Assembly (NCBI GenBank): GCA_041664605.1
Contig: JBAYKO010000002.1
Location: 7,453 to 71,452, forward strand
DNA: 64,000 bases
Reading direction: 5' to 3'
Source: Minisyncoccota bacterium
Lineage (GTDB): Bacteria; Patescibacteriota; Minisyncoccia; Phycocordibacterales; UBA9973
Numbering within the stretch: the stretch's first letter is position 1; each line of letters begins with the position of its first letter. Shown piece after piece: positions 3,541 through 62,504 of the stretch. Made by a program: the position numbers and the translations under genes. A model generated the notes under the pieces. It was given only the letters and a program-made list of their open reading frames with translations, was not told the DNA's origin and did not search any database.

Positions 3541-3571
3541 TAGGTTCTAGCTTCTAGGGGCTAGGTTCTAG
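3541..3571 (-). repeat. (CTAGAAC)n-type heptad repeat array directly 5' of the rpsZ start codon
   Basis: Minus-sense ACTAGAACCTAGCCCCTAGAAGCTAGAACCTAATTTTTATG. The same heptad array recurs at 19989-20022, 44041-44071, 50771-50800, 55329-55355, 54181-54220 and 61253-61283. Confidence 0.7.
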
Positions 3572-3687
3572 TAAATCAAGATATCTCATTCTTTTTCTTA
3601 AATACTTCAATAAATACGAGTACTTAAGGAGAAGAACGGATCTTTAACCTACCAAACTATATTAGCAAATTTAAAAATGTTGTCAAA

Positions 3688-3855
3688 CCCATTTTAAAAC
3701 CATCAGAAAAGGACGGTCCTTTTCTGATTAAAAAGCAAGTTTGAGAGCAAGTCAATTTTAAAACCCTTCGGGAAGGACCGTTCTTCCCGGATTCTGCGAA
3801 AGTCTTGCTTTCGCAGAATCAACCCATTTTAAAACCCCCTAAATAGGGGGTTTTA
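3688..3855 (-). repeat. Three tandem ~65-70-bp units, each CCCATTTTAAAACC followed by a GC-stem hairpin; the last hairpin is a T-tailed intrinsic terminator
   Basis: CCCATTTTAAAACC at 3688, 3753 and 3823. Hairpins are tcagaaaaggacggtccttttctga, ttcgggaaggaccgttcttcccgg, attctgcgaaagtcttgctttcgcagaat and aaaaccccctaaatagggggtttt. Confidence 0.6.
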
Positions 3856-3866
3856 TTAAAAAACTT

Positions 3867-4697
3867 TTATTTATTCTCGAACTTACGTTCCTTGGTTTCA
3901 GGATCAGTTACTATTCCTCTCTTAAAAACAATCGGACCAACTTTTTCAATTTGTTCTTCTTTTTTATTTTCAATTAAACGATTAAATGGACTATTATCTT
4001 TATTTCTTTGATCGTATCCAATCTTGATAATTTGTTCTTCCATTCTATTAAAAGCAAGTAAAAGATGTATTTTTCTTTCTTTTGGTGACATTTCTTCAAA
4101 ATTTTCATTATGACGTCCCCACCATTCACCTTTATTGTTTGGTTTTGTACCAAAATAACTCCCATTAATCAATTCATATGAGCAATTAGGGCAAATGGTA
4201 GTCTCATAATAAAGTGGTTCCAAACAATTAGAACAAATATTATTTTTTACTTGAAATCCACCATGATACACCCAATTATCTTTAAGGGAGCAAGCAAAAA
4301 TACCGAATTTTTGATGTTTAAACAAGCGACCAGTTTTTATTTTATTTCTTTCACTTCCATAAAGAGTTAAGCAAAATTCCCGTCCCTCTTGTGCTATTTC
4401 TTTTATTTTCTCAATTTCTTTTCTTTCAGAATTGTTTTCTACATCATTTGCTGTGATTGTAATAAATCGGGCAAAATGATAGGCATTCAAAAGATATTTT
4501 CTTTCTTTTGCATACCCATAAAGACTTTTAATCTTAAAGAAAGAATTTTTTTGACGCTCTATATGAGCTTTAAAACTTTTATCAAGATTTGGGAAAAATT
4601 CCGGACCACTTGGATAATGCCTATAAATAAAGAGTGTTTTCCTTATTTCATCTATGTATGAATTCATTAACGTCTGGGCAAATATTCTATTTTCCAT
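3867..4697 (-). CDS. Hypothetical 276-aa protein with a C-terminal CxxC...CxxC zinc ribbon, inserted between rpsZ and rplE
   Basis: Long ORF with CSNCLEPLYYETTICPNCSYE. It has its own upstream motif TTTACTTTTCT and a downstream terminator, and no recognisable family. Confidence 0.6.
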   Translation of the reverse strand: MENRIFAQTLMNSYIDEIRKTLFIYRHYPSGPEFFPNLDKSFKAHIERQKNSFFKIKSLYGYAKERKYLLNAYHFARFITITANDVENNSERKEIEKIKEIAQEGREFCLTLYGSERNKIKTGRLFKHQKFGIFACSLKDNWVYHGGFQVKNNICSNCLEPLYYETTICPNCSYELINGSYFGTKPNNKGEWWGRHNENFEEMSPKERKIHLLLAFNRMEEQIIKIGYDQRNKDNSPFNRLIENKKEEQIEKVGPIVFKRGIVTDPETKERKFENK

Positions 4698-4764
4698 TTC
4701 AATATATTTAATTTACTTTTCTACCCCAACCTTACCACAACCAAATAATTAGTCAATGAAAAAG

Positions 4765-4790
4765 AAAAGCGGCCATTATTGGCCGCTTTT
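4765..4790 (-). terminator. Intrinsic terminator (aaaagcggccattattggccgctttt)
   Basis: GC stem flanked by A/T runs just downstream of the 4796..5269 stop. A degenerate copy lies at 5344-5371 after rplE. Confidence 0.6.
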
Positions 4791-4795
4791 TAACA

Positions 4796-5269
4796 TTAAT
4801 GCATATTTTGGAGAAGTTGATTGAGCGTTTTATCAATATCAGCAACAACGCTTTCTGCTGATTGTTCAAGTATTAAAGCTCTTTCTTCTGATTTCGCTAA
4901 TAATTTATTTTTCTTTCTTAAAGAAGAAGATTCGGTTGCTTTAGAAAGATATTTATTAATTTTCTTTACATCCTTCTTCATTCCTTTTACTTTTTCACTT
5001 AAACTATTAGCAAAGTCAATCATTTGATTAACCGCTTCTTTTTTCTCTATATCTGAATCAGATATTAATTCACTGTAATCTTTGCAAGCAACAACTAATT
5101 TCTTACAGGAATTAGCCGTTGTGTCCAAGCATAATTTTAATGCCTTAATATCCTCCTTTAAAGACCTAATTTCTTCATTAGTATTCTGGTACTGACTTTT
5201 TTTGGCTTGACCAAAGATGTTAACACTGACAACAATTGATAAAATCGCTAAAATTACTAGTTTTTTCAT
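4796..5269 (-). CDS. Hypothetical secreted/lipoprotein-like coiled-coil protein (157 aa), inserted in the spc operon
   Basis: N-terminal signal peptide MKKLVILAILSIVVSVNIFG; the rest is charged and coiled-coil. Confidence 0.55.
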   Translation of the reverse strand: MKKLVILAILSIVVSVNIFGQAKKSQYQNTNEEIRSLKEDIKALKLCLDTTANSCKKLVVACKDYSELISDSDIEKKEAVNQMIDFANSLSEKVKGMKKDVKKINKYLSKATESSSLRKKNKLLAKSEERALILEQSAESVVADIDKTLNQLLQNMH

Positions 5270-5401
5270 TTTTACTGATTTAATGTTCTGTTTGTTTTAT
5301 CTAGTAAACATAATATCATTAAAAATATATTAGTCAAGCCAATTAAAAAACAGCCCTTATGGCCGTTTTTTACTTTACAAACTTTATAACTTTCTACTTT
5401 T

Positions 5402-5947
5402 CTAGTCTTCTTTCTTAAATGGAACTCCAATAGCTTCAAAGAATTTTATTGCTTCTTCTTTACTCTTAGCTGTTGTAACCAATGTAACCCCCATTCCAAA
5501 AACATCTTTTAATTCTTCATCGGCAGTTTCAGGAAAAATTGTATGTTCTTTAATTGAAAAAGTCATATTACCAATATTGTCTACTGATTTTCTGGTTAGT
5601 CCTCTAAAGTCTTTTGTTCTAGGAATAACAATATTAAAAAGCTTATCTAAGAAAGAATACATTCTTCCCCCTCTCAGTGTTACTACAACTCCAACAGGAT
5701 CTCCTTCTCTTGTCTTAAAAGAAGCAATTGATTTCTTGGCTCCCCTAATTGATCCTTTCTGGCCAGTCATCTTTGCTAATCTACCTAAAATAAAATCATT
5801 TCTATTTTTGTCTTTTTTCACACCTGAACCAGTTCCGGAATTTAAAACAACCTTAACCATTTTAGGTGATGCCATTTTATTTTTGTATCCAAAATCTTTT
5901 TTCATTGATTCAAATGCTTTTATTTCTCTTTGTTTTACTGTTTCCAT
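5402..5947 (-). CDS. rplE: 50S ribosomal protein L5
   Basis: 181 aa; MASPKMVKVVLNSGTGSG and the rest match uL5. Confidence 0.9.
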   Translation of the reverse strand: METVKQREIKAFESMKKDFGYKNKMASPKMVKVVLNSGTGSGVKKDKNRNDFILGRLAKMTGQKGSIRGAKKSIASFKTREGDPVGVVVTLRGGRMYSFLDKLFNIVIPRTKDFRGLTRKSVDNIGNMTFSIKEHTIFPETADEELKDVFGMGVTLVTTAKSKEEAIKFFEAIGVPFKKED

Positions 5948-5961
5948 AATTTTATTTGAAA

Positions 5962-6267
5962 TTAAATTTCTTGACCGCTTTTTTTACTGATTCTTACTTT
6001 TTTACCAGCAACTATTTTACTACCAACTCTTGATCTGGTGTTATCTTTTGGATCAACAATCATTACATTTGCAACTTTTATAGGCATAGCAATACTTAAA
6101 ATTTGTCCTTTTTCTCCACTCTTTCTTGGCTTTTGGTGTTTCTTTCTTACATTTATTCCTTCAACAACAATTTTTCCAAGTGCAGGGAAAGCCTTAACAA
6201 CTTTTCCCTTTTTGCCTTTGTCTCCACCAGTAATCACTATTATGTTGTCTCCTTTTTTTATATTCAT
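5962..6267 (-). CDS. rplX: 50S ribosomal protein L24
   Basis: 101 aa with KGDNIIVITGGDKGKKGKV, the KOW motif of uL24. Confidence 0.9.
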   Translation of the reverse strand: MNIKKGDNIIVITGGDKGKKGKVVKAFPALGKIVVEGINVRKKHQKPRKSGEKGQILSIAMPIKVANVMIVDPKDNTRSRVGSKIVAGKKVRISKKSGQEI

Positions 6268-6315
6268 GATTGATTTTTACTTTATAACTTTATGAACTTT
6301 CTACTTTATAACTTA

Positions 6316-6687
6316 CTAAAGTACTTCTGGTGCTAATGAAATAATTTTTTGATAACCTAATTCAGCAAGCTCTCTTGGAATCGGCCCGAATATTCTTCCT
6401 GCTTTTGGATCTTTCTTTCCTTTTTCCAGAATAACAACTGCATTATCATCAAATCTTATATATGATCCGTCTTTTCTTCTGAAAGCTTTTCTTTGTCTTA
6501 CAACTACGGCATGGTGAATATCTTTTTTCTTAACAAGTTTTCTTGGCTCTGCAACTTTAACAGAAATAACAACAAGATCGCCGATTTGTGCATATCTTTT
6601 TTTCGAACTACCAAGAATCTTGAAAACTTTTCCAATTTTTCCTCCAGCATTGTCTGTTATTTTTACTACTGTTTCTGGTTGTATCAT
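6316..6687 (-). CDS. rplN: 50S ribosomal protein L14
   Basis: 123 aa MIQPETVVKITDNAGGK, uL14. Confidence 0.92.
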   Translation of the reverse strand: MIQPETVVKITDNAGGKIGKVFKILGSSKKRYAQIGDLVVISVKVAEPRKLVKKKDIHHAVVVRQRKAFRRKDGSYIRFDDNAVVILEKGKKDPKAGRIFGPIPRELAELGYQKIISLAPEVL

Positions 6688-10896: not shown

Positions 10897-10929
10897 TGTT
10901 TTACTTTATAACTTTATGAACTTTCTACT

Positions 10930-11664
10930 TTATAACTTGCCTTTTAAAAAGGCTATGCTTTCTTCTGGGTTTGCAACTATAAGATATTTACTATTCATAA
11001 TATCAAGCGGGTTTATGTTTTTAAAATCAATCAAACTGACAGAAGGCAGATTGTTAAAACTTTTATCTATGGTTTTATCCTTACCAAAAATTGTAATAAT
11101 AGCAGCATTTTTTCTTTTAGTAGATAGTTTTTCAAAACCAGAAACTTTTGCGAGTGTTTCTATAATTTCTTTTGCACTTTTTGTTTTTATTTCTTTAATT
11201 GAAATTTGATCAATAAAAAGAATTTCATTTTTCTTCATTTTTTCTGATAGAACAACATAAAGAGCCTTGACCATCATCTTTTTATTTATTTTCTTTTTAT
11301 AATTTTTTTCTGCAAGAGGACCATGAGTAACACCTCCACCTTTCCAAATAGGAGATCTGGATGATCCGTGTCTTGCTCGTCCTGTTCCTTTTTGTTTCCA
11401 TGGTTTTTTACCTCCACCACGAACTTCTCCGCGCCCTTTTGTGTCAGCTGTTCCTGCTCTTTTATTTGAAAGAATACTTGTAACTATTTGATGGACCAAA
11501 TCAGCATTCCATTTTAATCCAAAAATATTAGCAGGCAAACTTATTTTACCTGTTTCTTTTCCTGTTTGATTATATATAGAAGCAGAAAGACTAGAAACTT
11601 TTCCTTCTTTTACAACTGTCTCTTTTTGAGCTTTCTTTTCTTTTTTGATTGATTCTTTTTTCAT
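10930..11664 (-). CDS. rplD: 50S ribosomal protein L4
   Basis: 244 aa with GTGRARHGSSRSPIWKGGG, uL4. Confidence 0.9.
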   Translation of the reverse strand: MKKESIKKEKKAQKETVVKEGKVSSLSASIYNQTGKETGKISLPANIFGLKWNADLVHQIVTSILSNKRAGTADTKGRGEVRGGGKKPWKQKGTGRARHGSSRSPIWKGGGVTHGPLAEKNYKKKINKKMMVKALYVVLSEKMKKNEILFIDQISIKEIKTKSAKEIIETLAKVSGFEKLSTKRKNAAIITIFGKDKTIDKSFNNLPSVSLIDFKNINPLDIMNSKYLIVANPEESIAFLKGKL

Positions 11665-17342: not shown

Positions 17343-17639
17343 ATGCCATCAAAAAGAAAATATGCTATGGTTTATTACCTTGATTTCAAAAAAGATTTGA
17401 CTGAAATGAAAGTTGATCTTGTCTTATGTAATACAGGAGGCGACCCTGACACAACATATATTTATATCCGCGAAAATGATCTTATTAGTGAAAAAAAGGT
17501 AAAAAAAATCCGCGGAGTAAATGAAATTATAAGAAACAAAAAAGAAGATACTTTTAAAGTATTTAAAACTTTTTTTTCTTTTAACCAAATTATGGATAAA
17601 TTGCTCAACTTAAATGTTGACGCAAATATGGATTTCTAA
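17343..17639 (+). CDS. Hypothetical protein (98 aa)
   Basis: ORF with a terminator-like hairpin downstream (17687-17714). Confidence 0.4.
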   Translation: MPSKRKYAMVYYLDFKKDLTEMKVDLVLCNTGGDPDTTYIYIRENDLISEKKVKKIRGVNEIIRNKKEDTFKVFKTFFSFNQIMDKLLNLNVDANMDF

Positions 17640-17827: not shown

Positions 17828-19981
17828 CTATTTTCTTGAAGCAATAATTGTGTCCGCAACGTTTGTAGGCACAACATCGTATCTTAAAAATTCCATAGTA
17901 AAACTGGCTCTTCCTTCAGTCATTGAACGAAGTCCTGTCATATAACCAAACATTTCTGAAAGAGGAACAACAGCATTTAAAACTTTACTCATTCCACGAT
18001 CTTCCATTCCTTCAATGAGTCCTCGTTTTGATGATAAGTTTCCAGTAATATCTCCCATGAATTTTTCTGGTGTAACAACTTCTACTTTCATCATTGGCTC
18101 CAAAATAACAGGTCTTGCTCGTCTACAAGCATCTTGCACCGCCATTGAAGATGCAATTTTGAAAGCCATTTCATTTGAGTCAACTTCGTGATAACTTCCA
18201 TCATAAAGTTCACAAGAAACATTAACCATTCTAAATCCTGCCATAACACCTCTATCTAATCCTTCTTTCAAACCTTTTTCAACAGCAGGAATATATTCTT
18301 GTGGAACAACTCCTCCCTTAATAGAATTAATGAATTCAAATGCACCAGATCTTTTTGTATTCTTAGGAAGTTTTTCAATTTCTTCCTTAGTAAGAATTTT
18401 CATCGGCTTAATTCTAATTCTAACGTGACCGTAGTTTCCGCGTCCACCTGACTGTTTAATATACTTGCCTTCTGCTTCAGATTCTCCTAAAATTGTTTCT
18501 CGGTAAGCAACCTGCGGTTTACCAACATTTGCATCAACAGTAAATTCTCTTTTCATTCGATCAACAATAATTTCCAAGTGTAATTCTCCCATTCCAGCAA
18601 TAATAGTTTCGCCAGTTTCTTGATCAGTTGTAACTTTGAAAGTTGGGTCTTCTTGAGCAAGTCTGTTCAAAGCCATTCCCATTTTTTCTTGGTCAGCTTT
18701 TGTTTTTGGTTCAATACGAAGGTTAATAACTGGTTCAGGGAAAACAATTCTATTTAATTCAACTGGATGATCTTCATCACAAAGAGTATCTGAAGTAATT
18801 GTATCTTTAAGACCAACAGCAGCTGCAATTTCCCCTGCAAAAACTTTTTTCACTTCTTCTCTATCGTTTGCATGCATTCTTAAAATTCTACCAATTCTTT
18901 CTTTGTTTTTTGTTCTTGGATTGTAAACATAAGAACCAGATTCAAGTGTTCCTGAATAAACTCTAAAGAAAATAATTTGCCCTACGAATGGGTCAGTAGC
19001 CACTTTGAAAGCTAGCGCAGAAAAAGGTTCTGAATCAGAAGCATTTCTTATCACCGGTGCATCATCGTGGTCTGGATCTGTCCCTTCTATTGGAGGAATA
19101 TCAAGTGGTGATGGTAAATAATCAACAACACCATCGAGTACCAATTGCACACCTTTGTTTTTTAAAGCTGAGCCTGCATAAACTGGAAAAATTTCATTTG
19201 TAATTACCCCTTTTCTTAATAATTTTTTCAAAATTTCCATATCTGGAATTTTTCCTTCCAAATAATCATTCATTGTTTGGTCATCTTGTTCAACAATTTT
19301 TTCCATAAGTTCATTGTGATATTTTTTCGCCTCTTCAAGCATGTTTTCTGGAATTTCTTTTTCAATAACTTGATTTCCCATATCACCTTCAAAATAATAA
19401 GCTTTCATTTTCAAAAGATCTACAACTCCTTCGTGCTTTTCTTCAAGACCAATAGGAATTTGAACTCTTACTGCCTTTTTTGTAAGTCTGTCTAAAATAG
19501 TTTTGTAGGAATATTCAAAAGATGCACCTGTACGATCAAGTTTATTTATGAAACAAATTCTGGGAACCTTAGCTTCGTCAGCGTAACGCCAGTTGGTCTC
19601 TGATTGAGGTTCAACACCCGCAACTCCATCAAAAACAACAACAGCTCCATCGAGTACTCTTAAAGATCGCTTCACCTCTACAGTAAAATCAATGTGTCCT
19701 GGGGTATCTATAATATTAAAACGATGTTTTTTACTTTTATCTTTTAGATCAGCATAAGTCGGAGTCCAGAAGCAAGTAACAGCAGCTGAGGTAATTGTAA
19801 TACCCCTTTCGCGCTCTTGTTCCATCCAGTCGGTTGTAGTTTCTCCGTCATGAACTTCACCTATCTTGTGTGATACTCCGGTATAGAATAAAACACGCTC
19901 TGTGGTGGTGGTTTTTCCAGCATCAATGTGAGCAATAATTCCTATATTTCTAACTTTTTCTAAAGGGTAATCTCTTTCCAT
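17828..19981 (-). CDS. fusA: Elongation factor G
   Basis: 717 aa with [27 protein letters not shown] and the rest of EF-G. A heptad CTAGAAC array precedes the start. Confidence 0.96.
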
Positions 19982-19988
19982 GATAAAT

Positions 19989-20022
19989 TAGGTTCTAGTA
20001 GCTAGGTTCTAGTTTCTAGTGT
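19989..20022 (-). repeat. CTAGAAC heptad array directly 5' of the fusA ATG
   Basis: Minus sense: CACTAGAAACTAGAACCTAGCTACTAGAACCTAATTTATC-ATG. Confidence 0.7.
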
Positions 20023-20135
20023 AAATTAATTTTAAAAAGCGCTAATGCGCTAGAAATAATATACAACAAAGACGTTTTTTTTGCAAAGCAAAAGCCGGGC
20101 TATTCCCGGCTTTTAAAAAAGATCTACTACATTAT

Positions 20136-23751: not shown

Positions 23752-23776
23752 AATAATAAAAATTCGTATGGCGACC

Positions 23777-23878
23777 CCGCCCTAATTTTGACATTTAGAT
23801 TAAGGTGGTAAACGAAATGAATTAAGTAAATTATAAATTTTAAAGATAGATAGATTGAGCATCAAAATTAGGGCGGGG
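23777..23878. repeat. Perfect 17-bp inverted repeat (CCCCGCCCTAATTTTGA ... TCAAAATTAGGGCGGGG) with a 68-bp AT-rich loop
   Basis: Arms at 23777-23793 and 23862-23878 are exact reverse complements; it lies between divergent M50 and rpmB. Confidence 0.75.
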
Positions 23879-26659: not shown

Positions 26660-26696
26660 CTAACTTTATAAACTTTTTACTTTATAACTTTATACT

Positions 26697-27419
26697 CTAA
26701 AAACCCCATTCCTTTAAAATTTCTTTTTCTTCTTCAGCACTTTTTGCTTTTTTATATTTTACTCCAGAAACTCCTTTAACTTTTTTCTCACACTCTGCCC
26801 AAGTTTTCCATTTATAAATTTTCCCTTTAATTAAACTGAGATATGAGTAGGCTGGCCCAATATTTTTCTTATTTTTTGTCGGTGGTTTTTTTTTGCTTAC
26901 AATATCATGAAAATAAATTTCAAATTTTTCTTCATAGTCTTTTAGTTTTCCTTCATATAATTCAACTGGTTTCATCATAGCGAAACTCGTAGCGATAACA
27001 TCAGCCCTTTCATTTCCATCTACTCCACTGTGCCCTTTTATTTTCTCCCATTTTATCTTGCCTAACTTTAATCTCTTTTTATTAACTAAAGAAAGTTCTT
27101 GCCATAAATCTTTATTCAAAACTTCATTTTTGTCTTTTGTGATCCAATTATTTTTTTCCCAACCATAAATCCAACTAGTTATTCCGTTTAAAACATAGGC
27201 TGAATCTATATATATTAAAACATCTCCTTTTTTATTTCCTAAATATAAAAGTGCTTCTACAACAGCCCGTATCTCCATTCGATTATTAGTAGTATGTTTT
27301 TCCATTCCACCAAGTTCATTTATTTTATTTTTTTCTGAATCACAGATAATCGCCCCAAAACCTCCCGGCCCTGGATTTCCAAGTGAACTTCCATCAGTGA
27401 ATATTGTAAACTTTTGCAC
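26697..27419 (-). CDS. rnhA: Ribonuclease HI with a C-terminal hybrid-binding (Cauli_VI-like) domain
   Basis: N-terminal core TDGSSLGNPGPGGFG...NNRMEIRAVVEAL...HSGVDGNERAD is RNase H1. The C-terminus YKWKTWAECEKKVKGVSGVKYKKAKSAEE matches the HBD consensus (Y..W.EC...V.G..G..YK.F...EEA). Confidence 0.8.
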   Translation of the reverse strand: MQKFTIFTDGSSLGNPGPGGFGAIICDSEKNKINELGGMEKHTTNNRMEIRAVVEALLYLGNKKGDVLIYIDSAYVLNGITSWIYGWEKNNWITKDKNEVLNKDLWQELSLVNKKRLKLGKIKWEKIKGHSGVDGNERADVIATSFAMMKPVELYEGKLKDYEEKFEIYFHDIVSKKKPPTKNKKNIGPAYSYLSLIKGKIYKWKTWAECEKKVKGVSGVKYKKAKSAEEEKEILKEWGF

Positions 27420-29936: not shown

Positions 29937-30011
29937 GATATGATTATAACAAGTAAAGTTGAAAGTTATAAAGTTTATAAAGTTATAAAGCAAAAAAATA
30001 TAATAAATCAA

Positions 30012-30428
30012 ATGGAAAACTGTTTATTTTGTAAAATTATAAAAAAAGAAATTGATAGCTCGATTATATATGAAGATGATAAATTTATAGCTATTTTAGA
30101 CATAAGCCCAATAAATATTGGTCATTCATTGTTAATCCCAAAAGAACATTCTGTAAACATTTTTGATATCAAAGAAGAAACACTAAGTGAAGCTGCACCA
30201 ATATTGAAAAAATTATCTTTAGCTATAAAAAAAGCAGTAGATGCCGATGGAATTAATATTCACATGAATAACGAAGAAGCAGGTGGACAAGCTATTATGC
30301 ACACACACTTTCATGTAATTCCAAGATATAAAGATGATGGAATAGTCCAATGGAAATCAGTACGAGGATACTCTGGAGAAGACGAAGAACAAGAAATAAT
30401 AATAAAAATCAAAAGCGCCTTAAAATAG
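30012..30428 (+). CDS. HIT-family (histidine triad) protein
   Basis: MENCLFCKII N-terminus and the HTHFHVIPR triad. Confidence 0.85.
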   Translation: MENCLFCKIIKKEIDSSIIYEDDKFIAILDISPINIGHSLLIPKEHSVNIFDIKEETLSEAAPILKKLSLAIKKAVDADGINIHMNNEEAGGQAIMHTHFHVIPRYKDDGIVQWKSVRGYSGEDEEQEIIIKIKSALK

Positions 30429-43850: not shown

Positions 43851-44040
43851 ACTTGAAATAGATTAGCATATATCTATAAAAAGTCAAGATTTTGAATATT
43901 TACCAATTTTAGCATTTGACATTTCCTTTAATATGTCTATTATAGTAAATGTAAGTCCGTCACGAAACGGGCTTTTATTTTAAAAAATTTAATATTAAAA
44001 AAATAAAAAAGGTATCGAAAGTTTTGTTTTAGTATTTTAC

Positions 44041-44071
44041 TAGAACCTAGAACCTAGAACCTATCACCTAA
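44041..44071 (+). repeat. CTAGAAC heptad array 5' of nusA
   Basis: TAGAACCTAGAACCTAGAACCTATCACCTAATTT-ATG. Confidence 0.7.
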
Positions 44072-44074
44072 TTT

Positions 44075-45487
44075 ATGTTAGATATAAAAGTAATGAAATC
44101 CGCTCTTGAACAATTAGAAGAAGAGCGAAAAATTCCAAAAGAAAAAATAATCGAAGCTATCGAGCAGGCTGTTGCCGCTGCTTACAAAAAAGATTACGGC
44201 AAGAAAGGCCAGATAGTTAGAACTCATCTTGATATGGATACAGGTGCACTTGAATTTTCTCAAGTAAAAATTGTTGTTGATGACACTCTTGTAAAAATGC
44301 CAAAAGACGAAGATGAGGAAGGTGAAGAAAAACAAACTGAAGAAATTGTTGATGATGGAGATGAGAGAGCTTATTTTAATCCTGAACATCACATCTGGCT
44401 TGAAGATGCAAAAAAAATAAAAAGTAATGTTAAGCTCGAAGAAGAAATTATTTTTCCACTTGAAATGCGTGATGACTTCGGAAGAATCGCAGCACAAACC
44501 GCAAAGCAAGTTATTATCCAAAGAATTCGAGAAGCAGAAAGAGAATCAATTGTCGGAGAGTATGGAGAAAAGGAAGGAGAAATCGTTAGTGGAATAGTTC
44601 AAAAAATTGAACACGGTGATGTCTTCGTAGATTTCAATAGAACAGTCGGAGTAATTCCTTTCAGTGAACAAATTCCAAATGAACACTACAGAAGAGGTGA
44701 AAGAATTCGCGCATACTTGTACATGGTTGAAGAAACTCCACGCGGAGTAAATTTGAGATTATCTCGAACTCATCCAAAATTTTTAGAAAAACTTTTTGAA
44801 ATGGAAGCACCAGAAATCGCAAGTGGCGTTGTTGAAATAAAAAGTGTTGCTCGCGAACCAGGATCAAGATCTAAGATCGCGGTTAAATCAAATGATGAAC
44901 ATATTGATCCAGTGGGATCATGTGTCGGCCAACGCGGTGTCAGAGTTTCGACAGTAATGAATGAATTGGGTGGAGAAAAAATTGATCTTATAGAATGGTC
45001 AGATGATCCAAAAAAATTCGTCTCAAGTTCTCTGTCACCAGCAAAAGTTTTAGATATTGAAATTGATGAAAATTTACATCGTGCAAATGTCGAAGTTGCA
45101 GAAGATCATCTATCTCTTGCAATCGGTAAAGGAGGACAAAATGTTCGTCTCGCTGCAAAATTAACTGGATGGAAAATTGATATCAATGGAGTACAAAATG
45201 AAGAAGTTGCAAGCGATGAAGATAAAATTGAAACTGATAATGATAATGAGGAAATTGATAGTGAAACACTTGAAGAAAAATTTGGAAGCGAACAAGTAGT
45301 TGATGAAACAGATGAAAGCAAGGAAGGAATAGAGAATATTACTGATGAAACTGATGAAGAAGATAGTGATGAAAATGAAAACAAAGTGGGGGATGAACCA
45401 GCTATTCAAATAATAAATGATGAAAAAATAAAAGTTGATGACTCTCCTGCCATAGAAATTGTGAAAGAGAAAAAGAAGAAAAAATAG
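44075..45487 (+). CDS. nusA: Transcription termination/antitermination factor NusA with long acidic C-terminal tail
   Basis: S1 domain (GEIVSGIVQKIEHGDVFVDF) and KH domains (GSRSKIAV...CVGQRGVRV; LAIGKGGQNVRLA), then a D/E-rich C-terminal ~90 aa. Confidence 0.9.
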   Translation: MLDIKVMKSALEQLEEERKIPKEKIIEAIEQAVAAAYKKDYGKKGQIVRTHLDMDTGALEFSQVKIVVDDTLVKMPKDEDEEGEEKQTEEIVDDGDERAYFNPEHHIWLEDAKKIKSNVKLEEEIIFPLEMRDDFGRIAAQTAKQVIIQRIREAERESIVGEYGEKEGEIVSGIVQKIEHGDVFVDFNRTVGVIPFSEQIPNEHYRRGERIRAYLYMVEETPRGVNLRLSRTHPKFLEKLFEMEAPEIASGVVEIKSVAREPGSRSKIAVKSNDEHIDPVGSCVGQRGVRVSTVMNELGGEKIDLIEWSDDPKKFVSSSLSPAKVLDIEIDENLHRANVEVAEDHLSLAIGKGGQNVRLAAKLTGWKIDINGVQNEEVASDEDKIETDNDNEEIDSETLEEKFGSEQVVDETDESKEGIENITDETDEEDSDENENKVGDEPAIQIINDEKIKVDDSPAIEIVKEKKKKK

Positions 45488-50380: not shown

Positions 50381-50719
50381 TTGTCCCGCCATCGGCGTGG
50401 ATTGAAAAAATCTATGTTTTTAGGAAATGAAATAGAAAAAACAATAAACTTATCCCCTGAAGAGCTTATATCAAAGAAAGAAACTGAAATAAAGCGTCTT
50501 GAAAAACTAAGAGCAAACACAAAAAATAATCTCGATAAGGAAAAAGAAGAAAGAATAAATCCTAAAAAACCAGAAAAAACAGATAAAAATTTTTTGAAAT
50601 GGGTAGATGAAACAGAAGATGAACTTGCGGGATATACAGTTACAATCATTAGGTTAGAACAAGAAGTTGAGGAGATAAAAGAAAAAAATAAAGAAAAATC
50701 ACATCAAATCGCTGCTTAA
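50381..50719 (+). CDS. Charged coiled-coil protein (about 100-112 aa)
   Basis: K/E-rich helical ORF; the start is uncertain. Confidence 0.4.
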   Translation: MSRHRRGLKKSMFLGNEIEKTINLSPEELISKKETEIKRLEKLRANTKNNLDKEKEERINPKKPEKTDKNFLKWVDETEDELAGYTVTIIRLEQEVEEIKEKNKEKSHQIAA

Positions 50720-50787
50720 TAAAAATTTTTTATATTATTAATTTATTATTGATTTTAATTAACTAGTCACTAGAACCTAGTCGCTAG

Positions 50788-51393
50788 TTGCTAACCAACA
50801 TGTTAATACCTACCGTTATAGAAAAATCACAATTTGGCGAAAGAGCTTATGATATCTATTCTCGATTACTTAAAGAACGCATTATCTTTTTAGGTGGTGT
50901 TATTGATGACGATGTCGCAAATATTATTATTGCTCAACTTATTTTTCTTGAACACGAAGATCCGAAACAAGATATTAAACTTTATATAAACTCCCCTGGC
51001 GGATCTGTCACTTCAGCTATGGCAATTTTTGACACAATGAATTATATAAAACCAGAAGTTCAAACAATTTGTGTTGGTGTTGCTGCTTCAGCAGCTGCTG
51101 TTTTACTTGCTTCTGGTAAAAAAGGAAAAAGATTTGCACTTCCAAATGCAGAAGTAATGATTCACCAAGTTATGGGTGGAACAGAAGGACAAGCTTCTGA
51201 TATTGAAATAGCGGCAAAACATATTTTGAAAACTAAAGAAAAATTAAATAAAATTTTAGCTAAAAGTACTGGCAAAACTCCAGCTCAAATAGAAAAAGAT
51301 TCTGATAGAGACAATTATATGTCAGCAGAGGAAGCAAAAGCTTACGGAATTATAGATGAAATAATAGATGAGACTAAATCGAGAAAATCTTAA
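50788..51393 (+). CDS. clpP: ATP-dependent Clp protease proteolytic subunit
   Basis: [14 protein letters not shown] (Ser), MIHQ (His) and DRD triad context. A CTAGAAC-like array precedes it at 50771-50800. Confidence 0.93.
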
Positions 51394-52651: not shown

Positions 52652-54178
52652 ATGAGTTTACAATTAATATTACTTGGCATCGCAACATTAATCGTTGGCG
52701 GTGCAATCGGATACTATCTTCGATTTGTCATTTCCCTTGGAAAAAGGGGTGGCGTTGAGCTTGAAATCAAGCAAATGCTTCTTGGGGCAAAAGAAGAAGC
52801 CCAAAAAATCTTAGATGAGGCAAATAAAAAGGCCGAAGAAAAGACTAGTGAGCTAAAGGAAGTAGAAAAAACAAAAGAACAAGAGTTCAAAAAAACAGAA
52901 GACCGCCTTATTAAAAAGGAGGAGCTTTTGGATGGTAGACAAGTCGAAATCGACAGAGAAGTCGAGGGAATAAAGGTGAAAGTTGAAGAAATAAAGAAAA
53001 TTAGAGAAAGAACCGACAAAATGGAAGAAGAAAAGGAAGGTGAATTAGAAAAAATTGCTAGATTAACAAAAGAAGAAGCAAGAGACGAACTTCTCAACAC
53101 CATTGAAAAAAGATACGAAGAAGATTTCTTGATTAGAATGCAAAAGCTAGAAAATATGAGTGAAGAAAAATTGGACAGAAAAGCAAAAGATATCCTTGCA
53201 ACAACAATTCAAAGACTTTCATCATCCACAGCATCAGAACTTATGACAACTGTTGTAAATATTCCATCTGATGACATTAAAGGAAAAATTATTGGAAAAG
53301 AAGGAAGAAACATTCGCGCATTTGAAAGAGCATCAGGTGTTGAACTTATTGTTGATGACACACCAGGCTCAATTATTATTTCATCTTTTGATCCAGTAAG
53401 AAGACAAGTGGCAAGACTTGCCCTTGAAAATCTTATTTTAGATGGAAGAGTACAACCAGCAAAAATTGAAGAGATGGTTGAAAAAGCGAAAGAAGAAATA
53501 AATAAAATTATAAAAGAAAAAGGCGAACAAGCGGTTTATGAATGTGGAATATTTAATTTAGATCCAAGAATCACCGCAATTTTAGGAAGACTTTATTTCA
53601 GAACAAGTTATGGACAAAATGTTTTACAACATTCTATTGAAATGGCTCACATTGCAGGAATGCTAGCAGAAGAATTAGGAGCTGACGTTTCAATTGCAAA
53701 AGCAGGAGCATTGGTGCACGACATCGGAAAAGCGCTTGATCATGAAGTTCAGGGAACACACATTGATATTGGAATCAGAATTTTGCAAAAATTTGGCGCT
53801 GATCCAAAAATTGTTACTGCAATGAAGTCGCACCACGAAGATTATCCTTATGAAACAATTGAATCAATCATTGTTCAAACAGCTGACTCGATCTCAGGAG
53901 GAAGACCAGGAGCAAGAAGAGATACTATTGAAAATTATTTAAAGAGACTAGCTGATTTAGAAGCTGTTGCAAATGGTTTTCAGGGTGTTGAAAAATCTTA
54001 TGCTCTGCAAGCAGGACGTGAAATAAGAGTATTTGTTATCCCAGATAAAATTTCAGATATCGAAGCAAAAAATATGGCACGCGAAATGGCAGTTAAAATA
54101 GAAAACGAACTTAAATATTCAGGTGAAATTAAGGTGACGGTCATACGAGAGAATCGAGTTATAGAATACGCCCGATAA
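52652..54178 (+). CDS. rny: Ribonuclease Y
   Basis: N-terminal TM, coiled coil, KH domain (IGKEGRNIRAFE) and HD domain (HSIEMAHIAGMLA...LVHDIGK). Confidence 0.92.
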   Translation: MSLQLILLGIATLIVGGAIGYYLRFVISLGKRGGVELEIKQMLLGAKEEAQKILDEANKKAEEKTSELKEVEKTKEQEFKKTEDRLIKKEELLDGRQVEIDREVEGIKVKVEEIKKIRERTDKMEEEKEGELEKIARLTKEEARDELLNTIEKRYEEDFLIRMQKLENMSEEKLDRKAKDILATTIQRLSSSTASELMTTVVNIPSDDIKGKIIGKEGRNIRAFERASGVELIVDDTPGSIIISSFDPVRRQVARLALENLILDGRVQPAKIEEMVEKAKEEINKIIKEKGEQAVYECGIFNLDPRITAILGRLYFRTSYGQNVLQHSIEMAHIAGMLAEELGADVSIAKAGALVHDIGKALDHEVQGTHIDIGIRILQKFGADPKIVTAMKSHHEDYPYETIESIIVQTADSISGGRPGARRDTIENYLKRLADLEAVANGFQGVEKSYALQAGREIRVFVIPDKISDIEAKNMAREMAVKIENELKYSGEIKVTVIRENRVIEYAR

Positions 54179-54292
54179 TAAATAGGTTGTATGTTTTAGG
54201 GGATAGGTTGTAGTAAATACAGAAAAAGCCGGCATTTGCCGGCTTTTTTAAAAAAAATCATTCAATAAAACTATCAGTTACGAAAATAACAA

Positions 54293-54952: not shown

Positions 54953-55357
54953 AATATGTACTTTAAAATTTCTGCCTATAATTGTACTAAATTAAAATTG
55001 TTTTGTCAACATAAGACTATTTCTATATAGTATATAGGGTAATTATAAAAAAGCCTTATGAACAAAGGGTGAAATTTTGTTCACAAAATTTCACCCAAAT
55101 CCCCTTGTTTTATAAGACTTTATAACTTTACAACTTTATGAACTTTCTACTTTTTTTGCTTGCCTTAAAAAACCCTTGTTATATAATAGTATACGAAGCA
55201 CATTGGTAAAAAGGTGTTTATAGAATAAAGTCTTTTCATAATAAATGTGAGAAGATATTAGGTCGAAAAATTTTTAAATAATAAATTATTAGTTGATAGT
55301 TTTTAGTCTTTAGTTTTAATACTATTCACTACAACCTATAACCTATAACCTAATTAA

Positions 55358-55630
55358 ATGAATAAACAAGCAATTGTAGAAATGGTTCACGAAAAAATCG
55401 GTGGAACAAAAGTTCAAGCTGAGGAAATCGTAGACTCAATAATTGATTCTATTATAAAGACTTTGAAGAAAGGCGATGAAGTTTCAATCGCAGGTCTTGG
55501 AATCTTCTCCGTAAAAGCAAGAGCAGCAAGAACAGCAAGAAACCCAAAAACTGGAGCAGCTGTACAAGTTCCAGCAACAACGGTTCCAAAGTTCAGAGCA
55601 GCAAAGGCATTGAAAGATGCAGTAAAATAA
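55358..55630 (+). CDS. hup: DNA-binding protein HU
   Basis: 90 aa, GLGIFSVKARAARTARNPKTGA arm; preceded by the CTACAACCTATAACCTATAACC heptad array. Confidence 0.93.
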   Translation: MNKQAIVEMVHEKIGGTKVQAEEIVDSIIDSIIKTLKKGDEVSIAGLGIFSVKARAARTARNPKTGAAVQVPATTVPKFRAAKALKDAVK

Positions 55631-58663: not shown

Positions 58664-58666
58664 TTT

Positions 58667-58791
58667 ATTGTCGGGGGTGCCGAGAATCTCCCCTTACTGG
58701 GGCTGGTGATTTTCCCATCTACTATATGGAAAATCCTTTCAATTCTCGACGCAGGTGAAGCAGTTCACCTGCTTCACCCCTCACTTGCGTG
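58667..58791 (-). ncRNA. Conserved tRNA-trailer / 5'-UTR structured element ending in a copy of the tRNA-Pro 3' T-loop-to-acceptor segment
   Basis: ~85% identical to 60480-60593, with compensatory stem changes between the copies. It ends 6 nt before the kinase ATG with GATTCTCGGCACCCCCGAC, versus the tRNA 3' end GATTCTCGGCACCCCGA. Confidence 0.55.
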
Positions 58792-60180: not shown

Positions 60181-60471
60181 TTACTTCAATCCTTTTAATT
60201 TTTCTTCCAATTTAACCATTTTAGCAGCCAATCTTCCTATCTTAGCTTTTTTCTTAAAAATTTCTTGATTTAATTCTTGTTTCTTTTCTTCATTATTTAT
60301 ATTACGTTCTCCATTTTCATATTTTCTTTGTTGTTCTAAAACAATGACTTCCTTCTCAAGTTTTTCTTTCTCTTCTTTTTTAACTTCTATTTCAACTTTA
60401 ATAGTCTCCTTTTCTGAGAAGTTATCTTCGTTATTTAAATTTGGTATTAAATTATTCTTGTTTATTTTCAT
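60181..60471 (-). CDS. Small charged coiled-coil protein (96 aa)
   Basis: K/E-rich ORF. Its ATG lies 9 nt downstream of the tRNA-Gly(TCC)-copy element. Confidence 0.45.
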   Translation of the reverse strand: MKINKNNLIPNLNNEDNFSEKETIKVEIEVKKEEKEKLEKEVIVLEQQRKYENGERNINNEEKKQELNQEIFKKKAKIGRLAAKMVKLEEKLKGLK

Positions 60472-60479
60472 AGGATATT

Positions 60480-60593
60480 GTCGGGATGGGAGAATCTCCC
60501 CTTACTGGGGCTGGTGATTTTCCCGTCTTCGACATGGAAAATCCTTTCGATTCTCCACGCAGATAAAGCAGTTTATCTGCTCATCTACGCTGG
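60480..60593 (-). ncRNA. Second copy of the conserved tRNA-trailer / 5'-UTR element, ending in a copy of the tRNA-Gly(TCC) 3' segment
   Basis: Shares AGAATCTCCCCTTACTGGGGCTGGTGATTTTCCC...ATGGAAAATCCTTTC.ATTCTC.ACGCAG with 58667-58791. Terminal GTCGGGATGGGAGAATC versus tRNA TGCGGGATGGGAGAATC. Confidence 0.55.
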
Positions 60594-60664
60594 TGCGGGA
60601 TGGGAGAATCGAACTCCCAACCTCAGTTTGGAAAACTGACGTTTTACCATTAAACTAATCCCGC
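60594..60664 (-). tRNA. tRNA-Gly (anticodon TCC)
   Basis: Acceptor GCGGGAT/ATCCCGC, D arm GTTT-AATGGTA-AAAC, anticodon stem TCAGT/ACTGA with loop TTTCCAA, T arm GGGAG-TTCGATT-CTCCC. Confidence 0.88.
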
Positions 60665-60770
60665 ATTGAATTTATTATTAAAATTCAAAAAGATTATAGC
60701 ATATTATTTTTATTTTTAAAATAAAATAACCTATTAATTTTCCCTTATTTTGTGTATAATTCGACTTAGG

Positions 60771-60842
60771 GCGCCCGTAGCTCAACGGATAGAGTACTTG
60801 TCTTCGGAACAAGTGATGTGGGTTCGATTCCTGCCGGGCGCA
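60771..60842 (+). tRNA. tRNA-Arg (anticodon TCG)
   Basis: Acceptor GCGCCCG/CGGGCGC, D arm GCTC-AACGGATA-GAGT, anticodon stem CTTGT/ACAAG with loop CTTCGGA, T loop TTCGATT. The T stem has two G-U pairs, so the fold is slightly weak. Preceded by TGTGTATAAT, an extended -10. Confidence 0.78.
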
Positions 60843-60998
60843 CAAAGAGAGAGAAAATATTAACTGCTTAATATTTTTGATGCTTTGTGCGAGACGGAAG
60901 TATGTTTTTTCAGCAGAAAAAACAACTGAGTCAGGGTCGGGAAATTTTAAGAGTGGCTGACGAGTAAAATATTCCTGACCACAAAGACAACAATAACC

Positions 60999-62504
60999 AT
61001 GAAACATCAATTTAAAATACCAGAAGAAGTTTCACGTGTAACAGAAACTTTAGAAAAAGCGGGATTTGAAGCCTATCTTGTTGGTGGGTGTGTTCGTGAT
61101 ATCTTATCGGACAAAGAGCCTAAAGACTGGGATGTGACCACAAATGCTACACCTGAGCAGATAATTGGTTTGTTTGAAAAGACTTATTACGAGAACTCTT
61201 TTGGAACAGTAGGAGTGGTTGTTTCATGTGAAACTAATATTGTTTCCTCTTCTATAACCTATAACCTAGAACCTAGAACCTGTATCATTGAGATAACTCC
61301 TTATAGATTAGAAGCAAAATATAGCGATAATAGACATCCAGACTCTGTTTCATTCAGTAATAAACTAGAAGATGATCTTAAGAGACGTGATTTTACTGTA
61401 AATGCCATAGCTTATAGTGTTTCTAAAGGACAGTTTATTGACCTTTATAACGGACAAAAGGACATAAAGGACAAAATAATCAGAACGGTAGGAAATCCAA
61501 AAGACAGGTTCCAAGAAGACGCACTTAGGCTTTTAAGAGCCGTTAGGTTTTTCGCTCAGCTTGGTTTCGTGATAGAAAAAGAAACAGGGGATGCGATCTT
61601 AGAAAATGCCCATCTTTTAAAAAATATTTCCAAAGAAAGAATCCGTGATGAATTTATAAAAATAATAATGTCGGAAGATCCAATGAAGGGAATTATCATG
61701 GCAGAAAAATTTGGAATTTTAAAATACATAATTCCAGAACTTGAAATTATGATTGGAGTAAAACAAAACGGTGATCACATTTATGATGTTTGGGAACACA
61801 GTCTTCGTGCCCTGCAACATGGAGCTGATAGAAATTTTTCTTTGGAAGTTAGATTGGCGGCACTGCTTCATGATATTGGAAAACCAAAAACTCGTTTTTG
61901 GTCAAAAGAAAAAAATGATTACACATTTTATGGTCATGATGTTGTTAGTGAAAGAATCACAAAAAAAATTCTTGATGATTTAAAATTTCCCAAAAAAACA
62001 ATTGAAACTGTCTCAAAACTCGTTAGAAATCATATGTTTTTTTCAGATATTGAAAAAATTACGCTTTCAGCAGTGAGAAGAATTGTAAGGAATGTTGGTG
62101 CAGATAATGTTTGGGATTTGATGAAAGTAAGAGCCTGTGATCGTATTGGAATGGGAAAGCCAAAAGAAGCTCCTTATCGTTTACGCAAATATGAATCAAT
62201 GATTGAAGAAGCAATGCGTTCTCCTGTATCTGTTGGAATGTTAAAAATTGATGGGTTAAAAATTATGAAAATCACAAATGAAAAACCAGGGAAAAAAATT
62301 GGCTATCTTTTGCATGCACTTCTTGAAGAAGTTTTTGATCATCCAGAATTAAACACTGAAGAATTTTTAGAAAATAGAGCGGTGGAATTAATAAAACTTT
62401 CTGAAAAAGAATTGCACGATCTCGGTGAAAAAGGGAAGGAGAAAAAAGATATTGAAGAAGAAAAAGAACTCGAAATAATCCGCAAGAGACACGGGGTGAG
62501 ATAA
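60999..62504 (+). CDS. cca: CCA-adding enzyme / poly(A) polymerase family with HD domain
   Basis: GGCVRDIL...DWDVTT head motif, RRDFTVNA and HD domain HDIGK. Contains an in-frame heptad insertion (61253-61283, SITYNLEPRTC). Confidence 0.88.
   Translation: MKHQFKIPEEVSRVTETLEKAGFEAYLVGGCVRDILSDKEPKDWDVTTNATPEQIIGLFEKTYYENSFGTVGVVVSCETNIVSSSITYNLEPRTCIIEITPYRLEAKYSDNRHPDSVSFSNKLEDDLKRRDFTVNAIAYSVSKGQFIDLYNGQKDIKDKIIRTVGNPKDRFQEDALRLLRAVRFFAQLGFVIEKETGDAILENAHLLKNISKERIRDEFIKIIMSEDPMKGIIMAEKFGILKYIIPELEIMIGVKQNGDHIYDVWEHSLRALQHGADRNFSLEVRLAALLHDIGKPKTRFWSKEKNDYTFYGHDVVSERITKKILDDLKFPKKTIETVSKLVRNHMFFSDIEKITLSAVRRIVRNVGADNVWDLMKVRACDRIGMGKPKEAPYRLRKYESMIEEAMRSPVSVGMLKIDGLKIMKITNEKPGKKIGYLLHALLEEVFDHPELNTEEFLENRAVELIKLSEKELHDLGEKGKEKKDIEEEKELEIIRKRHGVR
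61253..61283 (+). repeat. CTATAAC/CTAGAAC heptad array inserted in-frame inside cca
   Basis: CTATAACCTATAACCTAGAACCTAGAACCTG is translated as ITYNLEPRT within the head domain. Confidence 0.7.

Follow-up and report, generated by a model that had tools for sequence, protein, structure and literature searches.

What is a tandem repeat with a strict period of seven nucleotides doing directly in front of the start codons of central genes, in a bacterium whose genes show no Shine-Dalgarno (SD) signal, and why do further copies lie behind one gene and inside another? These questions are raised by a 64-kb stretch of the genome of a Minisyncoccota bacterium (Candidatus Paceibacterota; GenBank assembly GCA_041664605.1, contig JBAYKO010000002.1, positions 7,453 to 71,452), which was analysed at its full length and is called the window here. 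The initial annotation had described arrays of the heptamer CTAGAAC at seven sites, upstream of rpsZ, fusA, nusA, clpP and hup, downstream of rny, and in frame within cca, and all seven are present to within a few bases. In these seven places the trinucleotide CTA recurs with a strict period of 7 nt, and no other period is seen: four or more consecutive CTA at 7-nt intervals were counted 15 times (overlapping registers and both strands included), compared to 0–2 for each of the other periods from 3 to 11, and among trinucleotides only CTA and its reverse complement TAG showed 7-nt periodic runs in the window. The 14-mer CTAGAACCTAGAAC, with up to two mismatches allowed, matched the window 11 times against 0.38 matches expected, and Tandem Repeats Finder independently reported period-7 arrays at 3541, 19989, 44040, 55329 and 61252. 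A sequence model, R1, built from an alignment of 11 cassettes and then run on the window and on other loci, matched exactly the seven cassettes in the window and nothing further. These cassettes occupy 0.52% of the window, yet contain 17 of its 112 CTAG and 10 of its 13 CTAGAAC. Pfam matches support the names of the genes concerned, which encode S14, EF-G, NusA, ClpP, RNase Y, HU and the CCA-adding enzyme. An identical cca protein is present in a metagenome-assembled genome named Candidatus Paceibacterota, and through it the window was placed on the 106.6-kb JGI contig Ga0376277_0001269; an exact-protein search with NusA gave no match.

Alignment of the window copies with those found in other genomes shows a cassette rather than a loose microsatellite. 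The cassette is about 45 nt long and consists of a T-rich flank (TTTA), four CTA-NNNN units, a distinct last unit (CTAATTT), 0–3 nt, and the ATG. All five units of 11/11 aligned cassettes, drawn from at least five Patescibacteria genomes, carry CTA without exception, and the distance to the ATG is fixed. Among the 28 non-terminal units picked without use of the pattern search, positions 1–3 of the heptad were conserved at 96–100%, and positions 4–7 at 64–68%. The 7-nt period of the initial annotation therefore stands, while its choice of the whole heptamer CTAGAAC as the core does not, since only CTA is conserved to the higher degree. Three things had been missed: the CTA-at-7-nt core with its terminal CTAATTT, the inverted orientation of the rny copy, and a second family of arrays with an 8-nt period, which is described further below.

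Five copies form the 5' set. The rpsZ (S14) leader cassette (3535..3583, minus strand) reads TTTA CTAGAAC CTAGCCC CTAGAAG CTAGAAC CTAATTT TT, with the ATG at 3534, and scored 48.9 bits with R1. The fusA (EF-G) leader cassette (19982..20030, minus strand) reads CTAGAAA CTAGAAC CTAGCTA CTAGAAC CTAATTT ATC, with the ATG at 19981 (44.6 bits), and the nusA leader cassette (44028..44074, plus strand) consists of TTTA, three CTAGAAC units, CTATCAC and CTAATTT, with the ATG at 44075 (47.8 bits). The clpP cassette (50751..50799, plus strand; CTAGTCA CTAGAAC CTAGTCG CTAGTTG CTAACCA AC, ATG at 50800; 36.6 bits) is the most diverged copy; it had been recognized earlier, although its start lies near 50751 or 50763 rather than at 50771, and it is capable of forming a hairpin. 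The hup (HU) leader cassette (55310..55357, plus strand; CTATTCA CTACAAC CTATAAC CTATAAC CTAATTAA, ATG at 55358; 35.9 bits) is without any G. The G content of the 5' arrays is 0–6 per 38 nt, their final CTA begins at −7 to −10 from the ATG, and at least three UAG at 7-nt spacing occur in the rpsZ, fusA, nusA and clpP copies, but not in those of hup, cca and rny.

The position of these copies is far from random. Five of the six intergenic cassettes (rpsZ, fusA, nusA, clpP and hup) end 0–10 nt 5' of a sense-strand ATG, whereas a random intergenic point falls within that distance with p = 0.034, which gives a binomial P(≥5/6) of 2.8e-7. The closeness to start codons claimed in the initial annotation is thus borne out, as is its statement that most genes here lack an SD sequence: GGAG, GAGG or AGGA was found at −20 to −4 in 5/65 window genes, equal to background. 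Among 650 open reading frames (ORFs) from 80 related Paceibacterota loci, SD-like tetramers preceded 13.1% against a background of 11.5%, while this crude method returned 30% against 5.7% on gammaproteobacterial control loci. At the 5' cassettes, none of the three tetramers lies within the array or between array and ATG. Positions −12 to −1 are A/T-rich, with G at 4–13%. The anti-SD motif was detected in only 48% of Parcubacteria in a previous study, in which the bS1 proteins of the Candidate Phyla Radiation (CPR) mostly had 3–4 S1 domains (PMC9297842); literature on SD usage in Patescibacteria, or on the cassette sequence, yielded nothing specific beyond the absence of the anti-SD in many Parcubacteria. 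Several S14 homologs in the data (P0130, P0132, P0133, P0136 and others) are annotated with 15–40 extra N-terminal residues (76–101 aa, compared to 61), and in L214 the conserved MAKQ start of S14 lies 72 nt inside the called gene, which suggests start-site miscalls in SD-less genomes.

Comparison with other Patescibacteria showed that the cassette is not a peculiarity of one strain. An in-register cassette, (CTAG-NNN)x4 followed by CTAATTT, 0–3 nt and ATG, occurs in at least four other Patescibacteria genomes, before rpsZ and secY (L026), nusB (L095), ftsK (L120), and an ORF without a family that looks FtsQ-like by eye (L081). The suggestion that the arrays mark highly expressed genes is, given these neighbours, only partly right. 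The window, L026 and five other Paceibacterota lineages all conserve the rpsZ leader from promoter through helix, and the heptad cassette stands between this leader and the ATG only in the window and in L026, the other five having an ordinary A/U-rich linker of about 20 nt. In the two rpsZ cassettes, CTAG is kept in every unit while the three spacer bases of the units differ. In a set of 842 kb from 80 Paceibacterota relatives, fetched through cca, period-7 self-similarity was seen in 27/933 upstream regions, compared to 3–8 at lags 4–6, 8, 9 and 11, and 18 at lag 10; inside coding sequence, period 7 was seen in 1/945. The repeated units in these relatives were other than CTAGAAC. In L162, clpP is preceded by (ATTTACA)n; a family-less gene is preceded by (ATAAATC)n, (GCTATAA)n, (CTAAACN)n or (CCCTAAN)n, depending on the genome; L102 has (CTGTAAC)4 before rplO, (CTAGAAA)n before rplR and (CTATAAC)n before map; and L026 has (TAATTAC)n before rplR. 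With R1, the model of the CTAGAAC-type unit, no relative scored above 25 bits. Position and period therefore recur widely, and the CTAGAAC-type unit is restricted to particular lineages. An ancestral leader element was considered as a source of the cassettes and rejected, the orthologous hup, clpP and rpsZ leaders being without the cassette, with the sharing of the rpsZ copy with L026 as the exception.

The two copies that do not precede a gene bear on how the cassettes arise. The cca copy (61250..61283, plus strand) reads CTATAAC CTATAAC CTAGAAC CTAGAAC CT, scored 29.7 bits with R1, and is translated in frame as SSITYNLEPRT, as had been noticed before. The insert adds 11 residues (33 nt) to a variable loop of the nucleotidyltransferase head domain. 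At this place the gap extends over all 11 columns in most of 19 aligned cca orthologs (~70% identity), while shorter, unrelated inserts are seen in the others; the alignment thus points to a derived insertion and not to ancestral protein sequence. Because steps of 7-nt slippage would break the cca frame, the 33-nt insert appears to have arrived essentially in one step from an existing array, an argument that presupposes a single insertion event and that, on this assumption, upholds the earlier proposal that arrays spread by insertion. The array is present identically in three assemblies, namely the source contig of the window itself (L001) and the independent assemblies L002 and L003; the hup array is likewise identical in L001 and L002. 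The assemblies represent near-identical strains.

Downstream of rny, the copy had been seen but its orientation had not: it is a complete, inverted cassette (54176..54226, minus strand; 33.3 bits with R1 on that strand), the CTATTTAT end of which abuts the rny stop codon. It is located upstream of a terminator hairpin at about 54222–54250, as judged by folding of the 3' untranslated region (UTR). Inverted heptad cassettes directly 3' of stop codons were also observed elsewhere, at rpsZ in L026 (4905–4952, plus strand) and at cca in L148 (2142–2189), and in L026 the 186-nt rpsZ ORF is flanked by one sense and one antisense cassette. With seven dispersed copies in 64 kb, one of them inverted and one a derived insertion in cca, the family resembles miniature inverted-repeat transposable elements (MITEs) and repetitive extragenic palindromic (REP) sequences in its dispersal. 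However, no terminal inverted repeats, palindromic stem or target-site duplication were found in the 11-copy alignment, which contains direct heptads only.

Are the cassettes part of messenger RNA? Promoter-like sites (TTGACA-N16/17-TATAAT) lie 70–165 nt upstream of the rpsZ (3686–3659, minus strand), fusA (20086–20058, minus strand), nusA (43916–43943, plus strand) and hup (55160–55187, plus strand) arrays, and none lies between array and ATG at the five 5' cassettes. Because of this arrangement, the arrays should lie within mRNAs. For clpP, no promoter-like site was found within 50560–50810, i.e. 240 nt scanned upstream, and this gene may be co-transcribed with upstream DNA. A promoter within the array, or a leaderless mRNA, was considered and set aside, as there is no promoter-like site between array and ATG and the terminal TAATTT is too near the ATG for a −10 element. 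No terminator-like hairpin overlaps an array at the five 5' sites scanned. Near the start of the nusA leader, about 10 nt past the predicted promoter, there is a terminator-like hairpin with a U-tract (43953–43974, plus strand), which looks like an attenuator and could possibly serve NusA autoregulation.

In predicted structure, four of the five 5' cassettes have minimum free energies (MFE) of −0.7 to −6.3 kcal/mol (z of −0.7 to +0.4) and are no more structured than shuffled sequence, whereas the clpP copy is predicted to form a hairpin from its CTAG palindromes (MFE −13 kcal/mol, z = −4). A structured RNA element was rejected as a candidate: the hup and nusA leaders fold no better than shuffled sequence and Rfam gave no match. 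Rfam 15 found only four tRNAs in the window at gathering score, and permissive searches of the rpsZ and nusA leaders returned merely chance-level hairpin matches. Reduced structure as a selected property was likewise rejected, since array genes have start regions no less structured than the other 65 genes do. In the rpsZ leader, the cassette comes after a promoter-like site and stands immediately 3' of a conserved helix. This leader RNA is kept in the Paceibacterota examined (window 3572–3652, minus strand; L026 5180–5262; L204/L205/L210 ~5890–5982; L208 3030–3122) and combines the promoter with a long-range helix AUCCGUNN/NNACGNGAU (AUCCGU.../...ACGNGAU) around a UCUCYUU...AAAGA hairpin. The helix shows compensatory changes in 5/11 predicted pairs; the leader, for which Rfam gave no match, is a candidate for autoregulation by a ribosomal protein. 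In the window (3867–4697, minus strand) and in every S14-anchored locus fetched (L204–L219), one to four non-ribosomal genes (hypothetical, N_methyl pilin-like, DsbB, NUDIX) split the spc ribosomal-protein cluster between rplE and rpsZ, and because of this interruption rpsZ begins its own transcription unit.

The orientation and position of the cassettes, the CUA core, the register, and their recurrence before different genes argue for a role at the RNA level in the initiation region. We tentatively favor the reading that the tandem-heptad leader forms the −8 to −45 part of an SD-independent initiation region, possibly read by oligonucleotide/oligosaccharide-binding (OB)-fold proteins, although we would not call this reading probable. 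According to this reading, the cassette would be transcribed within the 5' leader or an intercistronic spacer, and would present a G-poor, mostly single-stranded platform in a 7-nt register, on which the 30S subunit could dock without pairing to rRNA. Docking would most plausibly occur via OB-fold domains, either those of a short CPR bS1 with three to four domains or those of a Csp-like protein, each contacting about one heptad, while the last unit, CUAAUUU, would provide the A/U-rich −1 to −8 context that is common to all genes here. A pre-formed array, copied ectopically or inserted, would give rise to new cassettes, which selection would then filter, leaving sense copies with their 3' end at the AUG, inverted copies between a stop codon and a terminator, and a coding copy that could survive only if in frame and free of stops. 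The cassettes may also affect expression. A bolder form of this idea, which we consider unlikely, is that the cassette is a portable recruitment signal read by protein, in which four to five OB-fold units (bS1 or stacked Csp-like proteins) would grip one heptad each and set the 30S subunit on the AUG.

Several observations weigh against the SD-independent initiation region that we favor. A need for unstructured RNA does not by itself explain the strong conservation of CUA, and low sequence specificity has been reported for S1 (PMC4679880). The array start regions are not less structured (−0.7 to −13 kcal/mol) than those of other genes (mean −5.8), and the stable clpP hairpin should impede docking. 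The copies in a 3' UTR and in coding sequence indicate that the cassette inserts without regard to function, and the downstream genes share no common function across genomes. The cassette is also missing from orthologous leaders (hup in 14 relatives, clpP in 3/4, rpsZ in five lineages); since these leaders do without it, it is gained and lost, and dispensable.

The main rival explanation is a selfish or neutral repeat that polymerase slippage and ectopic copying generate, that persists only at harmless places, including those before ATG in an SD-less genome, where its A/U-rich end mimics the native context, and that adds nothing to expression; we regard it as a possibility to be taken seriously, if a fairly doubtful one. 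Both orientations are seen, one copy lies inside a gene, orthologous sites in relatives are without the cassette, and the downstream genes are functionally unrelated. Among the matches listed in a scan of contigs described below, (CTAGAAC)n arrays of 3–22 units occur in many phyla, often at contig ends, and heptanucleotides were the most abundant long simple repeats in most genomes of an earlier survey, which ascribed them to polymerase slippage (Mrazek 2007, as cited in PMC4679880). However, neutral decay should strike all seven positions of the heptad, and the 14 hand-counted substitutions in the rpsZ, fusA and L026 rpsZ cassettes all fall in positions 5–7, with none in CTAG, for which (3/7)^14 is about 7e-6. 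Furthermore, at least five genomes have the five-unit register with its terminal CTAATTT in front of different genes, the bias of 5/6 is far above the start-adjacent share of intergenic DNA, and copy number does not differ between independent assemblies. An invariant core of 3–4 nt, with variable spacers in a fixed register, resembles a protein-binding array, and the arrays overlap the ribosome-binding region. It is conceivable, but decidedly unlikely, that they are operators for an oligomeric or multi-domain RNA-binding regulator that, in the manner of HutP, of TRAP or of Csp molecules bound one per heptad, reads CUA or UAG once per 7 nt and controls a post-transcriptional regulon, probably by occluding the start codon. 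The UAG-N4 spacing has the architecture of a HutP site, but the hup and cca copies carry CUAU or CUAC and not UAG, and the overlapping terminator that a HutP-type mechanism needs is absent from the arrays. For CspB, binding to heptamer repeats with one protein on each heptamer has been reported (PMC4679880); nevertheless, relatives use other units at the same position (ATTTACA, ATAAATC, GCTATAA, TAATTAC), the target genes have no common theme, and there is no candidate binder among the 30 window proteins scanned, none of which contains a Csp, HutP or TRAP domain.

The remaining explanations appear much weaker. A replacement for the SD, in which AACCUA or CCUAAU would pair in several registers with an altered 16S 3' tail or another exposed rRNA segment, could account for the SD-like spacing of the last CUA, and would suit a group of which part has lost the canonical anti-SD motif (PMC9297842). 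In a k-mer analysis, however, ACCTA/CCTAA occurred upstream only of array genes, 3–4/75, which makes pairing with the 16S 3' tail unlikely as a general signal, and both the 8-nt family TAAAGTTA and the other units of relatives hold the same position; we consider this explanation very improbable. Conserved 16S and 23S motifs, sought exactly and with up to two mismatches, revealed no Patescibacteria rRNA gene in the window or in the loci fetched by then. Equally small is the chance that the inverted 3' UTR cassettes (rny, rpsZ of L026, cca of L148) form a cis/trans antisense network that sequesters start-codon cassettes or directs RNase cleavage. Predicted duplexes between the rny 3' UTR and the five 5' cassettes reach −23 to −44 kcal/mol (z = −2.3 to −8.2), compared to −11 +/− 3 kcal/mol for 22 control start regions, and inverted copies recur by stop codons in other genomes; but any inverted repeat copy is automatically complementary, there is a single inverted copy in 64 kb, and the rny copy has a mismatch at the G of CUAG. 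Slimmer still is the case for a triple-frame stop barrier, in which upstream ribosomes would terminate and reinitiate at the AUG. Since 7 is not a multiple of 3, three units with TAG or TAA bring stops into every frame (1–3 per frame within 45 nt of the ATG, in each 5' cassette), and TAG/TAA lies within the conserved core; at 32% GC, however, stops in all frames are normal for any intergenic stretch of 45 nt, the CTACAAC and CTATCAC units contain no stop, and neither the five-unit length nor the conserved C of CUA is accounted for. We give the least credence of all to a role at the DNA level, as a transcription-factor operator, promoter element or phase-variable contingency locus. CTAG-rich operators are known, and count in its favor. 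Heptad DNA repeats also occur at promoters, e.g. TTTTGAT at ctxAB (bioRxiv 10.1101/2021.05.14.444153). Against such a role, the arrays lie 70–165 nt 3' of promoter-like sites, abut the ATG, follow the strand of the gene, and also occur in spacers without a promoter-like site, and successive sites 7 bp apart face different sides of the helix. The array length is the same in L001–L003, of which L001 is the source contig itself. Phase variation in particular was rejected, as copy number did not differ between the independent assemblies, although these are near-identical strains only and the evidence is weak.

Whichever explanation holds, the cassette may bear on a wider problem, the choice of start codons without SD pairing, which has hardly been studied in the very large, mostly uncultured Patescibacteria/CPR radiation. 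The cassette occurs in several classes of Patescibacteria, before the genes for central proteins such as S14, EF-G, NusA, ClpP, HU, SecY, NusB and FtsK, and as a short, portable unit with a defined core, register and distance to the AUG, it offers a concrete object for experiments. If it is a recruitment signal read by protein, it would represent a new class of bacterial initiation element, with a period set by protein geometry and not by rRNA complementarity, and could be copied before genes that need more output. If it is inert, it would still mark a process by which repeats are copied and inserted in reduced genomes, and would caution gene callers, given the N-terminal extensions annotated for some S14 homologs. 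It is also connected with the TAACTGA repeats known from giant sulfur bacteria and with the unexplained excess of heptanucleotide repeats in the genomes of bacteria.

The window also contains other repeated elements near start codons. The second tandem family has the 8-nt unit TAAAGTTA on the sense strand and is present at 6279–6318, 10903–10938 and 26661–26704 (minus strand), 29954–29990 (plus strand) and 55117–55146. Its arrays end 3–22 nt before the ATGs of rplX (L24), rplW (L23), comEC and an ORF at 30013 that is HIT-like by eye. They fill or overlap the rplN–rplX spacer and the spacer upstream of rplW, and the fifth copy closely precedes the −35 element of the promoter-like site of hup. 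A similar array of 8–9-mers, in the opposite sense, precedes rpsH in L102. A near-identical module was found upstream of five ATGs (15570, 16976, 17231 and 4697, minus strand; 17343, plus strand), comprising a promoter, TTGACA/TTGCAA-N17-TAATGT, followed by a short leader, AGAAAAGTAAATTAAAT. Four of the five genes, those scanned, have no Pfam match, the ORF at 17343 lying outside the scan. The hup leaders of relatives contain a motif, GTTTTAGTATTAAAAGTTAATTAAAT, similar to AGAAAAGTAAATTAAAT, and the module could represent a lineage-specific motif of the initiation region. A further element of some 45 nt, GAAAATCACCAGCCCCAGTAAGGGGAGATTCTC, is present twice (58664–58723 and 60472–60531, minus strand) directly upstream of two minus-strand genes, each copy being downstream of a tRNA gene (tRNA-Pro and tRNA-Gly) and containing a CCCC/GGGG hairpin. 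Finally, the motif CAAAATTAGGGCGGG occurs at 23752–23811 and 23818–23877, in inverted arrangement, between two divergent ORFs.

Outside the Patescibacteria, a contig scan for the exact 17-mer CTAGAACCTAGAACCTA, which covered the CTAGAAC-type unit only, listed at least 120 stretches, mostly from unrelated phyla, with matches in Shewanella, Vibrio, Pseudoalteromonas, Acidobacteriota, Chloroflexota, Cyanobacteria and Geobacter, among others. Long arrays of perfect CTAGAAC units, up to 22 in number, were observed in marine Gammaproteobacteria (Shewanella, Vibrio, Pseudoalteromonas, Photobacterium) and in members of other phyla (L005, L019, L025, L029, L043, L062, L088 and others), and several of those close to a start codon are separated from the ATG by an SD-like sequence. 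The genes 3' of the arrays outside Patescibacteria are unrelated to one another (bioB, pheS, hisG, dnaQ, lon and cysC, identified by eye from translations). Proximity to ATG among the matches listed was modestly enriched, with 13 sense versus 3 antisense cases in 124 arrays. These cross-phylum arrays may simply reflect the general abundance of heptanucleotides.

How does the cassette compare with systems that are already known? REP/bacterial interspersed mosaic elements (BIMEs), Correia elements and MITEs are small dispersed intergenic repeats that occur in both orientations, are co-transcribed and are mobile. The cassettes are likewise short, present in multiple copies and both orientations, and able to reach new sites, but they are built of direct heptads and have no terminal inverted repeats, palindromic stem or evident target-site duplication. 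The sites of HutP and TRAP consist of UAG or G/UAG triplets at fixed short spacing in an mRNA leader, that of HutP being UAG-N4 with a 7-nt period. Unlike the sites of HutP, a Firmicute protein that acts at terminators and requires UAG, the arrays have no terminator and include several units without UAG. SD-independent enhancers bound by S1 include A/U-rich leaders and the CAA-rich, direct-repeat omega leader of tobacco mosaic virus (TMV). The cassettes share with them a G-poor, weakly structured (in 4/5 copies, clpP being the exception), repeat-containing sequence directly 5' of the AUG without an SD, and differ in the strict 7-nt period and CUA core, to which those enhancers have no counterpart. 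The short tandemly repeated repetitive (STRR) sequences we take to form a class comparable with heptamer repeats.

The closest resemblance is to repeats of seven nucleotides in other bacteria. The Nostoc heptamer repeats lie near or overlap start codons and have been tentatively tied to transcription or translation (bioRxiv 10.1101/2022.06.06.494920). Like these repeats and other long 7-nt simple sequence repeats, the cassettes are intergenic heptanucleotide tandem repeats; the long repeats are usually longer and purer, with no fixed register or terminal unit, whereas the cassettes are short, imperfect and stable between assemblies. The TAACTGA heptamers of marine Beggiatoaceae, found also in some Cyanobacteria and Bacteroidetes, are mostly forward, end about 1 nt before start codons, usually without an SD, and precede ribosomal protein genes among others, with few copies inside ORFs (MacGregor 2015, PMC4679880). 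Their function was reported as unknown; S1, Csp or CsrA-like binders were proposed (PMC4679880). The TAACTGA repeats are tandem 7-nt direct repeats in 2–6 copies, often split by related 7-mers, and the cassettes, with 4–5 units per site, are built in the same manner. In both cases the arrays are forward, end a few nt from the start, take the place of the SD, precede ribosomal protein and unrelated genes, occur rarely in ORFs, are predicted to be unstructured, and contain stops in the forward frames. They differ in the unit, CTAGAAC or CTA-NNNN, and in the host, a Candidatus Paceibacterota bacterium, so that the cassette is an analogue and not a strict member of that family. Further differences are its fixed five-unit register, terminal CTAATTT, and conserved CTA core with a variable remainder, and the fact that, at orthologous genes of related genomes, the unit changes but the 7-nt period stays. 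The TAACTGA host has an SD in 25% of its genes (by its authors' 4-nt criterion, which is different from ours), unlike the present one, in which there is no SD signal. By analogy with these repeats, the element is best regarded as a variant, in an SD-less lineage, of a known but unexplained class of heptamer repeats.

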